A DNA stretch of 64,000 nt from Rhodospirillaceae bacterium (GCA_002746255.1 NVWO01000001.1:230102-294101), one strand, 5' to 3'; counted from the stretch's first letter, positions 16,614 through 36,125 are shown. Notes: generated by a model not told the origin, from the letters alone. Numbers and translations are program-made.

Positions 16614-16703
16614 GGAGGGGTGGCCGAGTGGCTGAAGGCGCTGGTTTGCTAAATCAGTATGCGGGTAACCGTATCGAGGGTTCGAATCCCTCTCCCTCCG
16701 CCA
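16614..16703 (+). tRNA. tRNA-Ser (anticodon GCU)
   Basis: Hand-folded cloverleaf. Acceptor stem GGAGGGG/TCCCTCC, anticodon loop TT-GCT-AA, long variable arm, T-arm GAGGG-TTCGAAT-CCCTC, discriminator G and an encoded CCA. Confidence 0.9.
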
Positions 16704-16994
16704 GCCATAAGTCATTGTTATATAAGTATTTTTCAGGATATAGCGTGGGTTTGAACTTGTCCCGCTACTTCCGGGGCTTACGCCCAATGCACCATTCCGT
16801 CATGAACACCTGAGACTGGTCTGGTGTGGCGAATGAGGCACCGATATCGGATAAGTCTCTTACGCCGGTTTTGGTGGTACGGCCAAATTCGCGTTGGGGT
16901 GTGATTTTGGCCGGATTGCTGCCGATTTCATGGCCGGCTAGTGCGCCGTGTTGGTGGCTAGGGGCGGGGATCCTGAGACAATTTCCGGCGTCCG

Positions 16995-18740
16995 TCAGCC
17001 GATTCCGAGGCGTGTGCGTTGCTCTTCCCAGGCGATGGGTAGACGCACCTCGTTTGCCAGTCGCTTGGCGGTCAACTCGATCGGATGACGGTCGTGGAGG
17101 ATAGCCTTCACGACGTCCGGTGCGAGGAAGCTGAGTCGCAGAATGCGGGTGAAATAGGAGCCGGTGATGCCGACTTCGGCGGCAAGCTCCGCTATCGTCT
17201 TGCCACCCTTGCGCATGAGCATCCCATGATACTGGTGGGCTTGGGCGAGTACCCGGCACAGGCTGCGGTCAGGCTTGCGGCGCACGTTACCGTCATCGCC
17301 GTCGATCAGGAGTCTGGTCTCCATGCCGGTGCGCTTGATCCGGGCCGGGACGGTGAAGGTAATGGTCGGCGCGGCGTTTGTTTCCGGTCGCGTCCAGTCC
17401 TGCGGATCGTTCTGGTCCCCTAGAATCGTGATCAACCGACCGGGCATGATATGGATCTCCAGCGTCTCGCGCAGGAGGTCGATCCGGTCGACAAAGACTG
17501 TGAGGATACGGCGTCTCTCGGACGGTTTCATCTTGGGCCACTGTTCGGCAAGATTCGTGACGCGGGCAACGACGGCGGCACGCTCGCTCACGTCGGCAAC
17601 CATCGCCGCGATCGCATCGAAGACCTTCGTCTCGCTTGCCAGGAACTGTCTGAGACGCCCCTCGACGAGTTCTTCGAGGTCGCCGGCCGGTACCCGTCGG
17701 CCACGTGGTGCGCGACGCCGGTTTCCCCGGACGAGTGCTTTCGAGACATAGTAGCGATACCGCGTTCCCTTCTTGTTGGCATGGCTAGGGGTCATGGGTT
17801 CGCCGGCATCGTCGTAGAGCAACCCGGCAAGGAGACTCGGCTGCGCTGCGTCGACTCCGTTTGCACGGTCGATGCGGTTCGCTGCCAGCTTTTGCTGCAC
17901 CTTATTCAACAGCGCTTCGTCGATGATTGCTTTGTGTTCACCGGGGTAGCTCGTCTCCTTGTGGACGATGCGCCCAAGATAGATAGGGTTTTGCAGCATA
18001 TGATAGAGCGCGCCGCGGGCGAGCGGCTTGCCACCGGTTTGGCGACCGAACCGGTTAGACCGGGCCTTGCTTGCGATGCCGTCCCGGTCGAGTTCTTCCT
18101 TGAGGGCGGGGACCGAACCGAGCGCGACATAGCGCCGGTAGATGGTGCGAACGGTCTCGGCTTCGGCTTCGTTGACGACAAGCTTTCTGTCCTTCACGTC
18201 GTAGCCGAGCGGCGGCAGGCCACCCATCCACATGCCCTTCTTCTTGGAAGCAGCAATCTTGTCGCGGATGCGCTCGCCGGTGACCTCGCGTTCGAACTGG
18301 GCGAAGGAGAGCAGCATGTTGAGGGTGAGCCGGCCCATTGAGGTCGTGGTATTGAAGGCTTGCGTCACAGAGACGAAGGAGACGCCGTGTGTGTCGAATA
18401 CCTCGACGATCTTCGCAAAATCGCTTAAGGATCTTGTCAGCCGATCGACCTTGTAGACGACGACCGTATCGACCTTGCCTGTCTCGATATCGGCAAGCAG
18501 GCGTTTCAGGGCCGGTCGCTCCATGGTAGCGCCCGAGATGCCGCCGTCGTCGTACATCTCGGGCAGACAGGTCCAGCCCTCGTGCTTCTGGCTTGCGATA
18601 TAGGCCTCGCAAGATTCGCGCTGGGCGTCGAGGGAGTTGAACTCCTGTTCCAGCCCCTCCTCATGGGACTTGCGCGTGTAGATCGCGCAGCGGGTCGAAA
18701 CCTTGCCGGCGGTCGTCTTGCGGTTCTTGGTCTTATGCAT
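16995..18740 (-). CDS. large serine recombinase (resolvase/invertase N-domain plus recombinase domain)
   Basis: The catalytic N-terminus reads CAIYTRKSHEEGLEQEFNSLDAQRE...VVVYKVDRLTRS, followed by a long C-terminal recombinase region. I preferred the start at MHKTKNRK (18740). Confidence 0.9.
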   Translation of the reverse strand: MHKTKNRKTTAGKVSTRCAIYTRKSHEEGLEQEFNSLDAQRESCEAYIASQKHEGWTCLPEMYDDGGISGATMERPALKRLLADIETGKVDTVVVYKVDRLTRSLSDFAKIVEVFDTHGVSFVSVTQAFNTTTSMGRLTLNMLLSFAQFEREVTGERIRDKIAASKKKGMWMGGLPPLGYDVKDRKLVVNEAEAETVRTIYRRYVALGSVPALKEELDRDGIASKARSNRFGRQTGGKPLARGALYHMLQNPIYLGRIVHKETSYPGEHKAIIDEALLNKVQQKLAANRIDRANGVDAAQPSLLAGLLYDDAGEPMTPSHANKKGTRYRYYVSKALVRGNRRRAPRGRRVPAGDLEELVEGRLRQFLASETKVFDAIAAMVADVSERAAVVARVTNLAEQWPKMKPSERRRILTVFVDRIDLLRETLEIHIMPGRLITILGDQNDPQDWTRPETNAAPTITFTVPARIKRTGMETRLLIDGDDGNVRRKPDRSLCRVLAQAHQYHGMLMRKGGKTIAELAAEVGITGSYFTRILRLSFLAPDVVKAILHDRHPIELTAKRLANEVRLPIAWEEQRTRLGIG

Positions 18741-19254
18741 CGACCGCCTCCTCGGCCCGCGAACCGATCGGTTGCCTGGCCCTATTGTTGATCCCGAAGA
18801 AGCGCGGTCCCGACCAGTGCCCGCCGGTGATTGCGCGCGCGATCGCCGACAGCGACTGCCAGTGTCGGCCCCTCCATTCAAACCCGTCCTCAGTAACGAT
18901 CACGGTATGAGTCTCACCATGCCACTCGCGTATCAGCTTCGCCCCGGGCTTTAGGCGGGCAACCCGGTTGCGCGTGACGTCGCCGTTCCGTTCCAGGGTC
19001 TTCGCCAGATCGGCGAGACGACGCTTCGTTGTCGCGCCGAGGCCACCAAAGGCCCGCTCCTGGATCTTCCATGCAATCCCGAGCAGGAGCAGGTCGCGTG
19101 CCACCCGCTTCGGCGGGTGGATGCGATAGAGCCGTCGCCATTCCACTCGTAGCGCGTCGTAATCCATCTCTCCGAGCGCTTGAAGTCTGGTCGCCACCTC
19201 CTCTACGGCACTCGCACTACGGCGTTGGAGGGCTTCTTTCCCGGTGCGCAACAT
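18733..19254 (-). CDS. DUF2924-like protein (accessory protein commonly next to serine recombinases)
   Basis: Carries the motif GAKLIREWHGETHTVIVTEDGFEWRGRHWQSLSAIARAITGGHWSGPRFFG. It overlaps the recombinase start. I preferred the start at MLRTGKEA. Confidence 0.6.
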   Translation of the reverse strand: MLRTGKEALQRRSASAVEEVATRLQALGEMDYDALRVEWRRLYRIHPPKRVARDLLLLGIAWKIQERAFGGLGATTKRRLADLAKTLERNGDVTRNRVARLKPGAKLIREWHGETHTVIVTEDGFEWRGRHWQSLSAIARAITGGHWSGPRFFGINNRARQPIGSRAEEAVDA

Positions 19255-19258
19255 CGAC

Positions 19259-19549
19259 TCATGCCTCGGCGGGTGCGATTTTGTAAACCTTTCGCTCATC
19301 CTTGTCGGCTTCAAGGCGGATGGTGAAGCCTCGCGTGCGGAGCCGGCTCAGGGCTCCGTATACGGAGTGCTTCTGCCAACCGGTTGCCTTAATGAGAGCG
19401 TCAATCGTTGCGCCCTTCCTGGTGTCAAGCCGGTCCAGGATTAGGCCGAGCTTTCCACCCGGGCGGGGGTTGGCATCGGTCCTCCGAGAGCGCTTGTCGG
19501 GGCTCTTCTTTGCGTAGCTGCGTGTTTTGCTTGGGGTCCGCTTGGTCAT
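19259..19549 (-). CDS. DUF3489-like small protein
   Basis: Only the C-terminal 96 aa of the 224-aa track ORF look genuine (MTKRTPSK...RKGATIDALIKATGWQKHSVYGALSRLR...KVYKI). Confidence 0.6.
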   Translation of the reverse strand: MTKRTPSKTRSYAKKSPDKRSRRTDANPRPGGKLGLILDRLDTRKGATIDALIKATGWQKHSVYGALSRLRTRGFTIRLEADKDERKVYKIAPAEA

Positions 19550-19644
19550 CGGTGGTCCTCCATCTCGGGCCGCGCCACTCGCGCGGCCTCCCACCAGCCC
19601 AAGCCCCGCCGGCAAGGCCGGCCAGGGCGGGCGGAGAGACGATG

Positions 19645-19898
19645 TCCACCCCTCAAGTTGACGGACAGTACCGCTTCCTTCTACGCAGGAGTCCAGACGA
19701 AAGAAGGCGGGAGGTAGGTCTTTCGGAGAACAGGGGGTATAATCGGTGCCAGGCATCGGGACACAGCCGGTCGGCTGGCTACCCATAAAGTCCCATGCTG
19801 GCTTCGGCGGGCCGACCCCGCCGGGGCTTTTTGAAATGGTATGCGAGCGTGCCGTGACGCGGCCGGGCAAGATCGGATGATCTCTGCGCATGCGGGGA
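19645..19898 (+). repeat. structured noncoding element, copy A (TATAAT box, GC hairpin with T-run, one CRISPR-I-E-repeat-like hairpin)
   Basis: It aligns by eye with 28390-28627. Shared parts are aggtaggtctttcggag, TATAAT (19738-19743), terminator-like CGGCGGG-ccgac-CCCGCCG-gggcttttt (19805-19832) and the hairpin cggatgatCTCTGCgcatGCGGGGa (19874-19898). Confidence 0.6.
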
Positions 19899-19922
19899 AA
19901 ACACGAAGGTAAAAGAGCTAAA

Positions 19923-20203
19923 GGCATTGACACGTTAAGTCGTTAGCTGGCTAGGGCAGGGGTCGGTTCGTCGACGCGAACAAAAACAACAGCACTTTCA
20001 AGTCGCCGGGATCGGCCCAACGGTTTCTGTCGATTCACGCTGCCGTCTACAACCTCTTCTACGTCCAACACCACCTTTTATCTCGACGTATATTCAAGGC
20101 ATTTCAAGCCGAGACTTTCACTGTCTGGAATCAAGGTTGGCTTGCAGCCTAATCCGGGTCACGATCCAATCGTGGCAACCGCGGAAGTTAACGTGTCAAT
20201 GCC
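19923..20203. mobile_element. IS6-family-like internally deleted element (MITE-like, both inverted repeats retained)
   Basis: Terminal inverted repeats ggcattgacacgttaa (19923) and ttaacgtgtcaatgcc (ends 20203). The interior keeps only a transposase C-terminal coding remnant (HAAVYNLFYVQHHLLSRRIFKAFQAETFTVW). Confidence 0.65.
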
Positions 20204-25301: not shown

Positions 25302-27602
25302 TTAGGTTTCTAGTCCCGAAAGCTGTCCAGGTGCGAACTTCTTAACTACTAAAATGGCTTCCTTCGATGCCAAAAGAATATCTTCTTCTATGTGGGGCGC
25401 ATCGCTAAATTTTCCTCCATGGCAGAGGTCTTGTATGAGGACACTTTTTATTTCGATCTCATGTTCGTCATTGAGAAACTTCACGAATTCCCCAAAATTA
25501 TTTTTATCAGGACAACAGAACTTCCACATACCCTCAATTACGGAGCGAATTGAATTCGCAGTAGTGTGATTTGGTTCCACCGCTTTCTCGCTGACGTCAT
25601 AGACGTCTTTCAGTTGAAGCATGTGGGGAGTTGCAAAGGCTTTTTGGCTTCGCAGAAAATGCTCAGCCGAGCCAGAGACCAACTGATATAGGGCACCCGC
25701 TTTCACTATATTGTTGGTCGAAGCGACGTTATAAAAGTGATTGTTGTGCGTGAGAATTAGCATCTTCGGCTTGTGAGGATTACTCTTTAGGTTGAATTCT
25801 ATCTCTCCATCGTCCCCTATCCGAAGTAGCTTGAGGCACGTGATGATCGTGTACACGTAGTCGAAAGACATTGACGTGACAGGATCGTCAAATACGAAAT
25901 AGATTTTCTTGTAATCGTCGTTAGACTCCACGCGTAGATGGGTCTGCGCGATGAAATAGCAAAACGCCATTGCTGATTTTTCACCATCGCTCAGAGTACG
26001 ATCGCCGCCGCGAAGCATTTCTTTGTTGTTGCGACGGACCTTGAAGTTAGACTTATCGAAGGAGTATTTATCCTGAAAGAAGCGGCGCAGAAGCATCGAA
26101 AAAGTATCGGCTACACGCTCTCTTGCCGAGGCTTTTTCACCGTAGTTATTCGTTAAGGCTGTCAGATTCATCTGGAGTTTGGGTATTTCGGCAGATAATT
26201 TGCGGAGTGCTTCTATTTCCACCGAATTGTCTGTCGCGAATTTTTGTGTGAGCGCTTCGCATGCCGAAGATTGAAGAGATCGCCGTTCTTCGCCGGAATT
26301 GCTTGCTAGGGATGCCAGTTTGGCAAAATGTTTGTTGTTTTCTTCGCAGCGATTTTTGACTGACGTCGCGATCGCAAGATAGTCAGCATTGGGCATATTC
26401 AATGGCCGGTCGAGCTGATCAGTCTTGTCTTGCAGCGTCTTATTAAGGGCGACGAGAAAGGCGCCCAGGCTGTCCAAACTGTCATCAACATCAACCAGTT
26501 GTACGTTACTCATTGTAGAAAAATATGCTTTCAGAGAATCGAAACGAGCGTTGCTCTTGAGAATTGCTTCTCTCTCGTTTGCGATCAACTTCTGTTGCTC
26601 TTGAACATGTTTCAACTGCCCGTCAATACGCTTCCTATGCTGGGCCTCTTCGTCTTCAAAGTACGCCTTATAGGCGTCGATAGCGGTTGCAGCTAAAGCT
26701 CCAATTTCTTGAGTGCAGAACGGACAGTTGTTTTGATCGGCGTTAAGCATCTTTAGCCCTGACTCGAAAAAGGCTTCATCAGATACGATTTTAGTCTTGA
26801 AGGTATCTGCGACAGTGGAGAGGTTGGTTATGTTTGCCAACTCCCCGTTAATCGTTTCGGAGTTGACCGAGAAATCAAAATTTACGGCGACCGGTAAATC
26901 GGGGTCTGATGGCAAAGATTTGAATTTGTTGTATTGGGTGAGAAGGACTTCGACTGACTCAGCACTTCCATCAGCGGTATAGGGCGAGTCCAGAAAATAG
27001 CAGCCCGCATTGAGAGCCTTATAAGTTCCCAAAGAACCCGTAATATTGAAATCCTGTTTTAGTTTCAGTTGCGCTGCTTTGAATGAGGTGAAAATTTCCT
27101 CCTTGCCTCTCGAAAGAGTAGATTGCTTGTCCTCTATCTTTTTCTGGAGGACATCAAGATCGGCATTTTCCTTTCCGATGATGATTTCATGAGTAATTTT
27201 GCCATCAAGCTCCTCCAACTTGTTGCGCAATTCTTCGTCAATGTAATCTTCTGAGAAAACGTGAAAAATATACGCGGGTGTTGAGCGCGTGACAGTGCTT
27301 GTACTCTTGAATAGTTCCATGCCTCCAATCTTAGTTGTGTCTTCAAACAGATTGAAAATTCCGGTTCCCGAAACGGACTCTTCTGAAACCAGAAGATTTG
27401 GCACCTCACTGTCTTTAACCTTGGTGTTTGCCGCACCATCAAGGTGCCTCAGGGCCCTTGCAAGGAAGGATTTCCCAAACCCATTGCGCGCGAAGATGAG
27501 GTTTTGTTTTTCAGACGAAAGAAACTGATCAAGCTTCATGATCGGCCCAATATGCTGGGCTACAATCCTCAAACGGGGCTTTGATTGCGGAGGGGTGTTC
27601 AT
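25302..27602 (-). CDS. RloC-like ABC ATPase with zinc-hook coiled coil (AAA_13 / PrrC-RloC family), candidate anticodon nuclease
   Basis: Walker A ARNGFGKS, coiled-coil insert with CPFC, signature LSDGEKS and Walker B IYFVFDDPVTSMS. The C-terminal region carries R-x3-E (SIRSVIEG) followed by His residues. The gene is visibly AT-rich. Confidence 0.65.
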   Translation of the reverse strand: MNTPPQSKPRLRIVAQHIGPIMKLDQFLSSEKQNLIFARNGFGKSFLARALRHLDGAANTKVKDSEVPNLLVSEESVSGTGIFNLFEDTTKIGGMELFKSTSTVTRSTPAYIFHVFSEDYIDEELRNKLEELDGKITHEIIIGKENADLDVLQKKIEDKQSTLSRGKEEIFTSFKAAQLKLKQDFNITGSLGTYKALNAGCYFLDSPYTADGSAESVEVLLTQYNKFKSLPSDPDLPVAVNFDFSVNSETINGELANITNLSTVADTFKTKIVSDEAFFESGLKMLNADQNNCPFCTQEIGALAATAIDAYKAYFEDEEAQHRKRIDGQLKHVQEQQKLIANEREAILKSNARFDSLKAYFSTMSNVQLVDVDDSLDSLGAFLVALNKTLQDKTDQLDRPLNMPNADYLAIATSVKNRCEENNKHFAKLASLASNSGEERRSLQSSACEALTQKFATDNSVEIEALRKLSAEIPKLQMNLTALTNNYGEKASARERVADTFSMLLRRFFQDKYSFDKSNFKVRRNNKEMLRGGDRTLSDGEKSAMAFCYFIAQTHLRVESNDDYKKIYFVFDDPVTSMSFDYVYTIITCLKLLRIGDDGEIEFNLKSNPHKPKMLILTHNNHFYNVASTNNIVKAGALYQLVSGSAEHFLRSQKAFATPHMLQLKDVYDVSEKAVEPNHTTANSIRSVIEGMWKFCCPDKNNFGEFVKFLNDEHEIEIKSVLIQDLCHGGKFSDAPHIEEDILLASKEAILVVKKFAPGQLSGLET

Positions 27603-28348: not shown

Positions 28349-28627
28349 CGGTTGATCTCTGCGCATGTGGGGAACGGATTGTTTAACGTTGCACCCTCCA
28401 AGACAGATAATGGCTGCTTGTGAACTGTGTTTTTGGAAGGTAGGTCTTTCGGAGTACAAGAGGTATAATCGGCGCCAGGCATCGGGACACAGTCGGTCGG
28501 CGGCCTTCCATAAAGTCCCGGTGTTGGCTTCGACGGGCCGACCCCGCCGGGGCTTTTTTGCGACAATATATGAGCGTGCCGTGATACTTGCCAGGCAAGA
28601 TCGGTTGATCCCTGCGCATGCGGGGTC
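28349..28627 (+). repeat. structured noncoding element, copy B, flanked by two CRISPR-I-E-repeat-like hairpins
   Basis: Hairpin repeats lie at 28349-28375 (cggttgatCTCTGCgcatGTGGGGaac) and 28602-28627 (cggttgatCCCTGCgcatGCGGGGtc). The interior is homologous to copy A, including TATAAT (28464-28469) and a terminator-like hairpin with T-run (28531-28559). Confidence 0.6.
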
Positions 28628-29762
28628 TCAATAAGGCCAATTTACGTTCTTAAACCGTTGCAAAAGTTTCGTCGCGTAGTCAGGCTCAATCATCTTTGCG
28701 AAATCAATCAGTCCGCGCAGGTGGGCTTTCATACCCCATATCGTATCAAACTCCCGAGCCTTCGCATGTTCAGTCGGACCGAATTTTTCCAGATAGTGAA
28801 TATGAAGGCGGAGATTGTCTTTGAACTCCCTTCGCAGACTTGGCTTAGGGCCACCCACATTCAGGCCAAGTACGATTTTTCTGCTCCCCGGAGGGATCAG
28901 TTTTGTCTTTCTATGCTGGGTCCGAAAGCCCGCCGATGACAAAATTTCCTCAATGGTATGAATAAAGGACGATGCAGTGGACCGACCGAAATTCTTCTCC
29001 GGTGTCGAGAAGGTCAGGTCATCGCTATAGCGCGTATACGTCAGTCCTGCTTCTCTGGCAGCATCGGAAATCCGCGTATCAATTGGCGTCATGATGAGAT
29101 TTGAGAGCATGGGGCTCGTAGGAGCCCCTTGAGGCAAATAACCCAGTACACCCGTCGAATAGGCAGGAATTTTCTCATTTCTGCGCCTGACCTTCCAAAC
29201 CGGATCACTATGGCGCGGGCTTCGATCCACTGGACCGATCGTTACTATCCGAGCAAGTTCGAATGACACCAGCGGTTGGTAACCCAGTGCTCTGAAAACA
29301 CGAAACACCTGGATCTCCGATATTGATTCGAAGAAGCTGGTGACATCCATTTTAATGAGTCATTGCGCCCCGCAATGCCTGCTCGCACATGAAAAAATGG
29401 ATCCGCCGGGTGCAAACGCAAAGCTGCAACTGTGAACGGGAACATATCTGGAGGATATACTTATTAAGCCATTTCTGAACGTGGCTCAAAGAAGGCGATG
29501 GCACATGAATGAAACGCCTTCCGCCTGACCGTTTTCGGATCGAAAATTTCCGGTATGTATCGATCTTGGAACGCTGAACGACGCTGCGCAGAAATTGGTA
29601 GGGCACCTTTGCGCGGGTAGCCAAGTGGTTGAGCGAGAGAATGGCTGGTAACTTCGGTTCACCCGACTCGACGGCTTCGATCTGCTCAATAGCGGTTGCA
29701 ATCGTGTCGTCGCCTAAGCCCTTCTTCTTCGCCTCTGCCCTATATTGATGAGGGGACCACAC
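28628..29762 (-). pseudogene. retron-type reverse transcriptase, disrupted by one frameshift and one in-frame TGA
   Basis: RT motifs are split over three frames. The first piece reads RKFSIRKRSGGRRFIHVPSP...HVQKWLNKYILQ. A frameshift near 29445 leads to YVPVHSCSFAFAPGGSIFSCASRHCGAQ, which ends at TGA 29360-29362. The last piece reads LIKMDVTSFFESI...LPQGAPTSPMLSNL...YTRYSDDLTFS...VLGLNV. From memory it aligns colinearly with the Ec86 RT. Confidence 0.75.
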
Positions 29763-29942
29763 GTAGACTACTCCGGTGGTGCCGGCACGGCGACTGCGCG
29801 CGCTGGCGACCCGAGGCCCACGATGGAAGGAGGCAGCGTGCGCAATCTCCAGTCATGCGTAGGCTTTCCCAAAGGGCAATGGAACTCCACGCCCCAACAG
29901 CCGTCAATATGGCGACTGCGGCAACATTGTTGCCTGCTTACA

Positions 29943-30212
29943 CTAGCCACGTGCGGCCCTCCTCAACTGTTGGGGAAAGTAATATTCGTCGCCCCTTGCA
30001 AGGACGCCCCCGTAAACTTTCCCCTGATCTTTCGCGGCTGCAAGCTCGGTACGTCCGAGAACTGTCAAACGAATCGATTGTGTTAAAAACCCCCACTTAA
30101 TGCATCGATTGATGATCTCAGTACAGCTTTCGCGGTTCAGCCCTGTTGCAAAGCTCAGGGCGCTTTGTTTTCTCTGTCCCTTGGCAATGAGGGCGAGAAT
30201 AAGAAGGATCAC
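29943..30212 (-). CDS. small winged-helix-like DNA-binding protein
   Basis: 89-aa ORF with an HTH-like pattern (LSFATGLNRESCTEIINRCIKWGFL). It sits between the PRTase-like gene and the RT. Confidence 0.5.
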   Translation of the reverse strand: MILLILALIAKGQRKQSALSFATGLNRESCTEIINRCIKWGFLTQSIRLTVLGRTELAAAKDQGKVYGGVLARGDEYYFPQQLRRAARG

Positions 30213-30235
30213 CTAACCTGTCTCGCCGCGTTGGC

Positions 30236-31182
30236 TCAGCTTGCTGCTCTTTGCCAGCTTCTTCTGTCCGACATCAAGAAGCGTAACAAGTGAGTCACCA
30301 CGTGCGATCTCAGGGGGAAAACTGATTGCTCACCCGCCAATATCGCGCGATTTTGAAACAACGGTTCCCACCGCTTTTTTCCTTTGATGGGTGCCCATAG
30401 GATCGCTGGTGCATTGTTTGGACAACCATGCTCAAACACCAAGGCAACCGATTCATGTCCATAGCCATCCCAGAAGTGGCTCCTGCTGGTACGCCGTCCA
30501 TACCGCTTGCAAACATTAAGCACGGAATTCCTCAGCGCCTGTCCCCAGGGCATATTCCTGAAGGTCGGGCAACTGCGCTCGACGATGACCTCGGGCTTCG
30601 CCTTGTGTTTGCTTACGTGTTTCATTCCCCGCTCGGTGGCGGAGAAAGAAACAACGATGATCTTTAAGTACTTGAGCGAAAGCCAAGAAACAAATGTCGG
30701 GTCGTTCCAGAAAGATTCAATAAATTCATATGTTCGTTTTCCAGAACCAATAAAATCATCGACGAAAACAATGGCTCGACACTTCTTATTCCGCAGCTCC
30801 TGCAGGCTGGGGTGATTTAGCAGTTTATTTGAATCTGTTTTGGAGTAGTTCCGGATTATAGCTGCTATCCGCGCCTCGCTTCCGTGATCGCTGCCATGAA
30901 CGAGCGCGTCGATATTTCCGGTCGTAGTGTTCGTATACTGTTCAAAATACGAGTTCTGTTTATCGACCTCGCGAACAGCATAAAAGGCAATTGGCAGATC
31001 GTTCTCGGAAGCCGTCTTCTCCAATGACGACTGTATGGCACGTTCGAATTCCGAATGGGAAACAAGCGTAAGGCTTGCATCAATCTTCTCAGCTATGTCT
31101 TTATCGCTTGAACCAAACTGGACCAGCCAGCTCTTGCCAAGCTCTGTGTATAGCAGCGCTCGGGCTATTCGTTTTTCCGAAC

Positions 31183-31195
<13 letters not shown>
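30236..31195 (-). CDS. phosphoribosyltransferase-like (PRTase-fold) protein
   Basis: Has a PRPP-loop-like motif, [15 protein letters not shown]. Its start overlaps the hsdR stop, either at GTG 31195 or as a GTGA overlap at 31186. Confidence 0.55.
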
Positions 31196-34323
<3,128 letters not shown>

Positions 34324-34331
34324 AATGCCCC

Positions 34332-35093
34332 CTATGCTGCCAATTTCTCGCGGATTTCTTCGCGGCGGCTCCAGAGAACGGGCATAATCTGATAATTCTT
34401 CAGCGCATCGGTAACGGTACTCGATATTGCACGCTCGTTATCATTCAGGAACGCATAAGAAACGGAGTTCTCAGGCCTGACTTCACGTGTATCGAGGCAG
34501 GCCATAATCAGGTTCTGTGCCGTGTTCCTGTTGGGATTGTTGATCGCACGGATTATCCGTTCCGGCTCAATCCGGGATTTAGGGATCACAAAATCGAACA
34601 TGTGATCGAATCCGGTTTTCCCGGTGAATTTCACGCTCGGTGTAAACCGGATTTCAGAAAGATCGAGCCAGGCCGCCACGTCCTCGAAGAAAAGCGCCTC
34701 TACCGTAGGCGACGCCAGGTAAAACATGTCGTGGACGGATAGAATGCCCTGAATCAGATTATGCTTACGAAGCGCAAAGTTGTCCGCACTTGTATGAACG
34801 CACAGTTGGTGATCGCTCTCCTCAATGCCGAACCCATTGAGCACCGACTTGAGGATTGCCTGCCGCTTCGGGCTTTCGAGGGAAAAGCCCGAATGAGAAA
34901 GGTCTAAGAGTGTTTCGCCTCCATCTGTAAGGAGATAGCCGCCTTCGTGCTTTCGCGCGTAGATTTGAATGTAATCGTTATGGCGGTCCAGATATGGGGT
35001 CGTAATCTCGGCCCAGTTGTTAATGTGACGGATAGCCGTCTTGTCCCGAAGCCAGCGCCAATACCCTTCGACCAGTTTCTCTATCTCGTTCAT
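34332..35093 (-). CDS. DUF1828/DUF1829-like protein nested in the hsd operon
   Basis: 253-aa ORF. The family assignment is from memory of proteins often found in type I R-M loci. It overlaps the upstream ORF as ATGA and ends 8 nt before the hsdR start. Confidence 0.5.
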
Positions 35094-35536
35094 GTGAAGA
35101 GCCCTGGTTCAAAGTGAGGTGGCCGGGTGACATTGCAGTAGCGCAGGAAATCCTGAAGCGATTGGAAAGGATCAGCGATGGAAGGGAATTGATCCGTCGG
35201 GATCGGATATGCCCAACGGTCGTTGTAACCTTCCTGGTAAAGATGGATGTGCGGACAACCAATCTCCTCATCGTCCGGGTTGCGATGAGGAGCGCCACCA
35301 AAATCAAGCCGAGCGAGAATGATTGTTGTTCGGGCACGATTCTGAAACGTCCCTTTGTTCAAGTTGATCCGGCTGCGAGTTATATCAAGGTGGAAACTCT
35401 CAGATTCATCATGCGAGACGAGCGGAACGACTATCCCACCGCCAAGGTCAGGAAGTCGCCGACGTTCCTCATCAACTCGATGCTTTTCGAGCGCCAAAAG
35501 AGCATCCGCGTCAGCCTGTGTCAGCCACATACTCAT
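35090..35536 (-). CDS. hypothetical protein (148 aa) nested in the hsd operon
   Basis: Non-biased sequence with the core [41 protein letters not shown] cannot name a family with confidence. Confidence 0.55.
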
Positions 35537-35555
35537 GTCACCGCCTCCGCAACTT

Positions 35556-36125
35556 TCACGACATTGCGGAGGCGGAGTTTGCCCGCGCTTGGTCGATTTT
35601 GTCCTTTTTCTTCCTTAAATATTGGCTAGGGTTCCAGCCACCGGGGTTTTGGGCAGGGATATTGTATACGTTTCGAAGTCTTTGCGCCAAATCCGAGGCC
35701 GCTAAGCCAAGGCGGGCATATTGATGCTGGCGTTCTTCAAAGACTTCTTCATAGTCAGGTGGAAAAGCTACCTCAGAGCAAACAAATGCAATCGAACGGT
35801 TTGCAGCTTCAGCTTCGCCTGGGAGCGTCAAGAGCACGTACATCAGTTCGCAATCAATGCTTTTCCAGTCAACATCGTCAGGATATATCAGAGGCGCTGG
35901 TAGCGAAATTTGAGGATGAAGGCAGCCTTCCTGATCTTGCTGGCCGCCATCATCTTGGACAACCTCGACACATTCATTGACATACCTATCGAGAATGCAA
36001 GCAATACGCACGGAGAGGTACCTGGCGTGCCGCGCCCGCATCCTCATGTCTGACCACGCGTCTTTTATCAAAGTGAGTAAGGCTCCGATAAAAACCCCTA
36101 AAAGACCAAAAACAGCTTCGCTCAT
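35556..36125 (-). CDS. hypothetical protein with one N-terminal TM helix (189 aa) nested in the hsd operon
   Basis: The N-terminus AVFGLLGVFIGALLTLI is hydrophobic. The start overlaps the hsdS stop as ATGA. Confidence 0.5.
   Translation of the reverse strand: MSEAVFGLLGVFIGALLTLIKDAWSDMRMRARHARYLSVRIACILDRYVNECVEVVQDDGGQQDQEGCLHPQISLPAPLIYPDDVDWKSIDCELMYVLLTLPGEAEAANRSIAFVCSEVAFPPDYEEVFEERQHQYARLGLAASDLAQRLRNVYNIPAQNPGGWNPSQYLRKKKDKIDQARANSASAMS

Follow-up and report, generated by a model that had tools for sequence, protein, structure and literature searches.

In Retron-Eco11, a type III-A3 retron, the reverse transcriptase (RT), the msDNA, and an effector in which a PRTase is joined to a winged-helix domain (wHTH) form a complex that is activated by the catalytically active phage helicases T4 UvsW and T5 D10 without release of the effector; once activated, the PRTase depletes PRPP and the infection aborts (Garcia-Rodriguez et al., NAR 2025, PMC12746101). 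Defense by Eco11 requires the RT, the msDNA, and the effector, and the effector alone is non-toxic (PMC12746101). Evidence for anti-phage activity is confined to Eco11 and five III-A3 relatives that have been tested, and the RTs of Eco11 and Ec86 both belong to clade 9 (PMC12746101). PRTase and wHTH are encoded by separate genes in types III-A1 and III-A2 only, and by one gene for a fused protein in types III-A3 to III-A5 (Mestre et al. 2020, PMC7736814).

Here we analyze a retron-like module on the minus strand of a 64,000-nt stretch of DNA from a Rhodospirillaceae bacterium (GCA_002746255.1, NVWO01000001.1:230102-294101; hereafter the window), in which an effector region, an ncRNA, and an RT gene follow one another in that order (table 1). 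The locus is a type III-A retron, an ordinary and already described kind of anti-phage system, and in the window this known system is dead, given that each protein gene carries a frameshift and a premature stop, so that neither a functional RT nor msDNA nor a full-length effector can be made. We are confident in a reading in which the retron has the fused-effector, Eco11-like (III-A3) architecture, was pseudogenized recently, and occupies the 3' end of a type I restriction-modification operon within a defense island of an uncultured alphaproteobacterium.

Table 1. Features of the retron locus and its surroundings, in window coordinates
Feature	Position	Strand	Remarks
Retron-like module	28628..31195	-	effector, ncRNA, RT in this order
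hsdR, type I restriction subunit	31183..34323	-	1046 aa, intact; Pfam families assigned on the identical gene of L006
Fused PRTase-like/winged-helix effector pseudogene	29943..31195	-	417 codons with two single-nt lesions reverted; GTG start
319-aa ORF	31195-30236	-	PRPP loop
Effector lesion 1	30313..30317	-	-1 frameshift in C-run, TTTTCCCCCTGAG; C5 where C6 is needed; + strand GGGGG
Effector lesion 2	30213..30215	-	in-frame TAG; relatives have Glu (GAG/GAA) in G-E-[LI]-I-L-L
89-aa ORF	30212-29943	-	wHTH
Gap between 89-aa ORF and RT	29942-29763	-	180 nt
Retron ncRNA gene (msr-msd)	29760..29953	-	covariation-supported structure
IRa1	29953-29943	-	overlies effector stop codon
Conserved TAGTG with candidate branching G	29945-29941	-	
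Three msr stem-loops	29934-29920, 29918-29898, 29895-29874	-	
msd hairpin, long	29850-29789	-	
Hairpin, short	29788-29779	-	
IRa2	29772-29760	-	overlies RT start codon
Retron RT pseudogene	28628..29762	-	377 codons once two single-nt lesions are reverted; GTG start
RT lesion 1	29445..29447	-	+1 insertion, CAG ATATGTT CCC; relatives L-R/Q-N-V-P-V-H, AAT GTG CCC
RT lesion 2	29360..29362	-	TGA replaces Trp (TGG) in G-A-x-W-L-I-K-M-D; W134 invariant
tRNA-Ser(GCT)	16614-16703		followed by large serine recombinase

Identity of the Locus

With its lesions bridged, the RT matches the PADLOC model RT_III-A at an E-value of 9.3e-177, far beyond chance, and its 25 best PADLOC matches are all retron RT models. 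The PADLOC model PRTase_III-A matches the 319-aa open reading frame (ORF) of the effector region (E = 2.7e-91). Together with the Pfam domains described below and the typology of Mestre et al. 2020, these matches bear out the type III, PRTase-associated class proposed in a first-pass annotation of the window, which had also recognized the inactivation of the RT correctly but had assumed an undamaged effector made by two genes, a part of its interpretation that did not hold. The label III-A3-like, as opposed to III-A4 or III-A5, is suggested by motifs and architecture rather than by subtype-specific profiles. A scan of genome contigs recovered one distant locus only (45% identity), and a megablast search with the locus gave no match among the PLSDB plasmids.

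The Pfam domain RVT_1 is recognized in the RT, which is 77-78% identical to intact 377-aa RTs. Among PDB sequences, its 14 best matches are retron RTs with Ec86 at the top (E = 1.3e-32), and a group II intron RT and Drt2 reach only 1e-6 and 3e-6, respectively; both the profile and the PDB searches thus classify the enzyme as a retron RT rather than a group II intron or DRT enzyme, in agreement with the resemblance to Ec86 noted earlier. Both RT lesions that the first-pass annotation had described are present. The first, directly after ...NKYILQ, is an extra base in ATAT at a position where relatives encode Asn (AAT), and the second is a TGA in G-A-Q-stop-L-I-K-M-D, where Trp was expected and where all 112 homologs have an invariant, TGG-encoded Trp.

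One Broken Effector Gene

Upstream of the RT, the effector region is open in two ORFs, both of which had been noted before. The first (319 aa) carries the PRPP loop and the retron-specific Gx14PNNxP motif, each read directly in the ORF, and matches Pfam PRTase-CE (PF24390, 5.8e-29); the second (89 aa) is the wHTH and matches Pfam wHTH-PRTase_assc (PF24409, 6.4e-24). The two ORFs correspond to positions 6-268 and 286-366 of a single PADLOC model (PRTase_III-A, PDLC02933), and the relatives are fused, on which grounds we regard them as pieces of one gene. When the window is searched with intact homologs of 413-414 aa (tblastn), it is covered in two frames with a switch at S-V-F-P|P-E-I, and relatives read S-V-F-P-P-E-I (TTC CCN CCN GAR) at this site. 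The GTG that opens the 89-aa ORF is the codon directly after the TAG of the second effector lesion, the last 25 residues of the 319-aa ORF come from read-through in the wrong frame, and the conserved linker is missing from both fragments, as it is read out of frame.

The organization of the relatives is uniform. Those with RTs 71-77% identical to that of the window (L002/L003, L004, and L005) encode a fused effector of 413-414 aa and an RT of 377 aa, and in each the two genes are exactly 180 nt apart; in a distant locus (L001, 45%), which is laid out alike, the effector measures 423 aa, the gap 186 nt, and the RT 384 aa. We gathered 80 metagenome loci, 52 of which have enough upstream sequence for an effector count, and in about 50 of these 52 the effector is a single ORF of about 410-440 codons (up to about 520) that stops 158-218 nt before the RT. 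Of the 120 best effector homolog clusters, 118 combine the two Pfam domains in a single protein (393-465 aa); the remaining two are the cluster of the window itself and another truncated gene. A wHTH fused to the C-terminus of the PRTase is the condition of this lineage and of the ancestral gene, the frame of which is interrupted twice in the window. These comparisons speak against a two-gene effector: the "accessory pair" that had been invoked to define type III fits only III-A1 and III-A2, the close relatives are all fused, and the effector genes said to look intact are fragments of one fused gene with a frameshift and a TAG between them. The remainder of what had been observed, that is, the RT lesions, the ORFs, and the gap, is as described.

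Structure prediction supports a PRTase-like fold for the 319-aa ORF, again as previously suggested. An AF2 model from a 60-sequence alignment has a pLDDT of 88, with the last 24 residues poorly modeled (pLDDT is 35 when the model is made from the single sequence), and in a Foldseek search against the PDB nearly all of its matches are type I PRTases (uracil, orotate, HGX) at weak E-values of 2e-3 upward. A PDB sequence search with the repaired effector gave no match. Neither of the results named in the first-pass annotation as refuting its reading, an RT that falls with group II intron, Abi, or DGR enzymes instead of retrons or a 319-aa protein without a PRTase fold, was obtained.

A Conserved ncRNA in the Gap

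The gap between the 89-aa ORF and the RT holds an msr-msd ncRNA. An RNAalifold consensus of 24 loci contains 37 pairs, 20 of which have compensatory changes; standard pairs occupy 95.5% of cells compared with 82% in shuffled alignments, none of 500 shuffles reaches the observed value, and paired cells fall to 45-50% if the partners are slid by 1-3 columns. In the long msd hairpin, 11 of 13 pairs have double changes, and the a1/a2 duplex of the ncRNA is calculated at -21.6 kcal/mol. The window ncRNA keeps 36 of the 37 consensus pairs, the same number as intact relatives, so the RNA gene itself seems undamaged. Identity to relatives is 88-91% in the intergenic DNA and only 65-74%, at the DNA level, in the flanking genes. 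No Rfam family matches the retron ncRNA at this locus at E-values up to 1, and a search of the whole 64-kb window at gathering thresholds returned tRNA-Ser only and no retron RNA family. With an RT that is broken twice, msDNA would not be expected from this locus.

Genomic Context

The GTG start of the effector overlaps the stop of hsdR by 13 nt, and we found no promoter-like site between hsdR and the retron; from the overlap, the retron is probably co-transcribed with hsdR. The same junction exists in L004, where an intact retron follows an hsdR gene 81% identical to that of the window, with an overlap of 4 nt between hsdR and the start of the effector. The presence of RNase R, TopA, PyrC, and GatA shows that the window is chromosomal. 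The best named match of TopA is "MAG: Alphaproteobacteria bacterium" (76%), and Rhodospirillales-like taxa are at about 63-65%. A tRNA-Ser(GCT) gene and a large serine recombinase that follows it mark an island with genes for an SbcD-like protein, a 1173-aa AAA_27 protein, and a 766-aa PDC-S06/AAA_13 protein, the retron, and hsdR, PDC-M24B/A, PDC-S67, hsdS, and hsdM. A 23-nt repeat beside the RT stop was tested as an att site from the tRNA-Ser 3' end and is not derived from it.

Age and Cause of the Decay

Four disabling single-nt lesions lie within 2.4 kb, each protein gene having a frameshift and a nonsense codon, and when these four nt are reverted, a 417-aa effector and a 377-aa RT result. 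Apart from the lesions, the RT of the window is unchanged at all 98 columns with a conservation of 95% or more among the 112 homologs, compared with an average of 1.4 deviations in intact homologs, and the effector is unchanged at all 40 columns conserved to 90% or more. Because a four-nt repair restores both ORFs and no conserved residue is changed, the decay appears to be recent; the nearest intact relative has only 77% protein identity. Of the three explanations that the first-pass annotation had left open, a decaying retron is the correct one. Among the long ORFs of the 64-kb window we saw no further clear multi-lesion pseudogene. Given that Eco11 needs all three components and that its effector alone is non-toxic, we infer that the first hit would free the rest of the system from selection: loss of one component would render the remaining parts neutral, and further lesions would then accumulate.

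We considered whether the loss of function was itself positively selected, for example, as a consequence of auto-activation by a resident helicase or a mobile element. The four disabling lesions in 2.4 kb, in conjunction with the lack of any change at 138 conserved residue positions, would fit such a history, as would an independent effector frameshift in one related retron and the existence of a sister population with a 13-nt deletion in the neighboring PDC-S06 gene. In a codon-level calculation, the probability that neutral mutation produces no conserved-site missense change before the second nonsense codon is P ~0.05-0.06, a marginal signal, and for this reason we do not claim selection. 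The excess of knock-outs is a weak hint, and recent neutral decay that followed a first knock-out would fit the data. Moreover, a single knock-out suffices in a system such as Eco11, in which three parts are essential, and selection for loss would leave lesions two to four unexplained. Selected loss is an unlikely alternative to neutral decay.

More generally, it is very unlikely that the locus reflects something other than simple decay, either because a costly retron was hit repeatedly or because the split fragments, together with the preserved ncRNA, still have a function that needs no RT and depends on hsd transcription. If such a function were real, a III-A3 effector would here have split naturally into a pair of the III-A1/A2 kind. 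In the specific form of this proposal, PRTase and wHTH act as separate proteins, as they do in III-A1 and III-A2, where they are encoded by separate genes; the 89-aa ORF begins with a GTG directly after the TAG and spans Pfam wHTH positions 1-82/83, and the effector start overlaps the hsdR stop. However, the conserved linker is removed, since it is read out of frame, the split needs two independent lesions, 118 of 120 relatives are fused, and the RT is dead as well. The effector of Eco11, in addition, needs the RT and ncRNA for defense and is processed and inactive alone. An effector pair now operating without its RT under hsd control, as had been suggested, is unsupported because a frameshift and a stop disrupt the effector as well, and we give fission very little credence.

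Authenticity of the Lesions

The reading of the lesions as sequencing or assembly artefacts, with an intact retron in the organism, derives some appeal from the metagenomic source of the sequence and from one lesion that lies in a homopolymer (C5 vs C6), a classic error site. The three others are not of this type: two are substitutions that create stop codons, and the third is an extra base in ATAT. The truncated proteins of the window recur in other data sets, exactly or at 90% identity or more, and three further assemblies span all four lesion sites and have the same four lesions. Two of them are 100% identical to the window, L006 (ENA ERZ23499281 scaffold_30) over 12.3 kb and L007 (JGI 3300029925) over 8.5 kb. 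The third, L008 (JGI 3300033050), has no mismatch and differs solely by the 13-nt deletion in the neighboring PDC-S06 gene, which makes it a distinguishable haplotype. The same reads may underlie two of these, the ENA re-assembly of SAMN07571245 and a JGI assembly. The long ORFs that flank the retron are all intact. Based on the recurrence of the lesions in three further assemblies, the non-homopolymer nature of three of the four, and the undamaged flanking ORFs, a one-off assembly error, which the first-pass annotation had kept as an option, is very unlikely, and an intact retron in the organism is scarcely credible.

Programmed recoding, in which -1 frameshifting at U_UUC_CCC would be combined with stop-codon read-through, can be dismissed: the effector frameshift site is a zero-frame heptamer of the form X_XXY_YYZ, but four separate events of three kinds would be required, a frameshift or stop at these positions occurs in none of about 170 relatives, and the neighboring genes use TGA and TAG as ordinary stops.

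Implications and Comparison with Known Systems

Decay of a once intact retron has practical consequences for annotation, beyond which the importance of the locus is small. What would be called a 319-aa PRTase, an 89-aa wHTH, and a truncated RT is better annotated as a single dead retron of III-A3-like type than as a functional effector pair. The analysis also yields an ncRNA alignment, backed by covariation, for a retron lineage that no Rfam model covers, and indicates that the hsdR-retron junction is recurrent, in that a second lineage combines an 81%-identical hsdR with an intact retron. As the locus is four nt away from full-length ORFs, it could easily be resurrected for retron-editing or defense assays.

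Retron-Eco11 is the system to which the locus is most readily compared, a comparison made by published motifs and architecture and not by direct sequence alignment. As in Eco11, effector, ncRNA, and RT are arranged in order on one strand, and the window effector has a PRPP loop, the counterpart of VVILTDTIGSGNQ in Eco11, and the Gx14PNNxP motif. The C-terminal end of the effector reads ...YYFPQQLRRAARG in the window and ...YYPNQLRKASRG in relatives, and the window peptide YFPQQLRRA resembles the YYPxxLRxx peptide of III-A3 (effector cluster 67_3). [quoted passage not shown] By analogy, the intact relatives, which have a gene for a PRTase-wHTH effector, an msr-msd ncRNA, and a 377-aa RT, would work like Eco11, a suggestion extrapolated from one studied system. 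Unlike Eco11, the window copy is dead, with a frameshift and a premature stop in each gene, its host is an uncultured alphaproteobacterium rather than E. coli, and the retron is joined to the end of hsdR.

The locus also resembles types III-A1 and III-A2, in which a PRTase-like effector and a winged-helix protein accompany a retron RT and ncRNA; in these types, however, the wHTH is encoded by a genuinely separate downstream gene, whereas the split in the window is the product of a frameshift and a stop in a lineage whose intact members all have fused effectors. Retron-Eco1/Ec86 (type II-A3) has the closest RT of solved structure, and its effector likewise ends in a wHTH, but the effector domain is nucleoside deoxyribosyltransferase-like (PMC7736814), in contrast to the PRTase-like domain found here.

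Genomic Context of the Retron

In both the window and L004, an intact related retron locus, the start of the retron effector gene overlaps the hsdR stop codon; between these two lineages, identity is only ~63–76% for the retron proteins but reaches 81% for hsdR. These observations suggest that hsdR and the retron have been inherited jointly as one module. Three candidate defense genes identified by PADLOC lie between hsdS and hsdR within the type I restriction–modification operon. The recombinase module that follows a tRNA-Ser(GCT) gene probably served to integrate the island in which the defense genes reside.

Features of the retron neighborhood and of related loci (window positions unless a locus is named)
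Feature	Location	Strand	Remarks
tRNA-Ser(GCT), then 628-aa large serine recombinase, DUF2924 protein, DUF3489 protein	16614-19933		Recombinase module
Intergenic repeat, ~110–120 nt	19790-19897; 28510-28625	+	Partial copy, 28349-28372 (+)
Acidic ORF, 83–90 aa	28026-28298	+	Convergent with RT
hsdR stop/effector start overlap	31183-31195; L004:3576-3579		
PDC-M24B (DUF1828/DUF1829), PDC-M24A (DUF6978), PDC-S67	34332-36125		PADLOC
Related retron with effector frameshift	L089:4001-6557; L090:134-2690		

One copy of a repeated intergenic element adjoins the RT stop codon, and a second copy is located between the recombinase module and an SbcD-like gene. The element includes a terminator-like hairpin, GGGCCGACCCCGCCGGGGCTTTTT, and has CGGTTGATCYCTGCGCATGYGGGG as its 3′ limit. 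Its 23-nt core occurs three times, against an expectation of zero; the element matched no Rfam family, and testing its sequence for derivation from the 3′ end of tRNA-Ser ruled out that source. The small acidic ORF that converges on the RT has no match in Pfam and is also gene-called in the other assemblies.

Effector Decay in a Related Retron and Gene Disruption in the Island

The retron of loci L089 and L090 encodes a full-length RT that is 87% identical to that of L002, an intact related locus, and its effector gene carries an independent frameshift at approximately residue 278 (between LFPN and R), a site different from that in the window. Together with the window, it brings to two the separate instances of effector decay within this retron lineage. 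Two other metagenome loci, in which the upstream effector ORF is not full length (371 codons with a gap of 55 nt in L017 and 155 codons in L079), may represent further decayed or rearranged retrons.

L008, the contig from JGI 3300033050 that carries the same four retron lesions as the window, represents a sister population with 0 mismatches to the window apart from a 13-nt deletion at the position matching window 27277-27289, within the neighboring gene for the 766-aa PDC-S06/AAA_13 protein. Because this deletion shortens the called product from 766 to 642 aa, a second defense gene of the island is disrupted in the L008 population.
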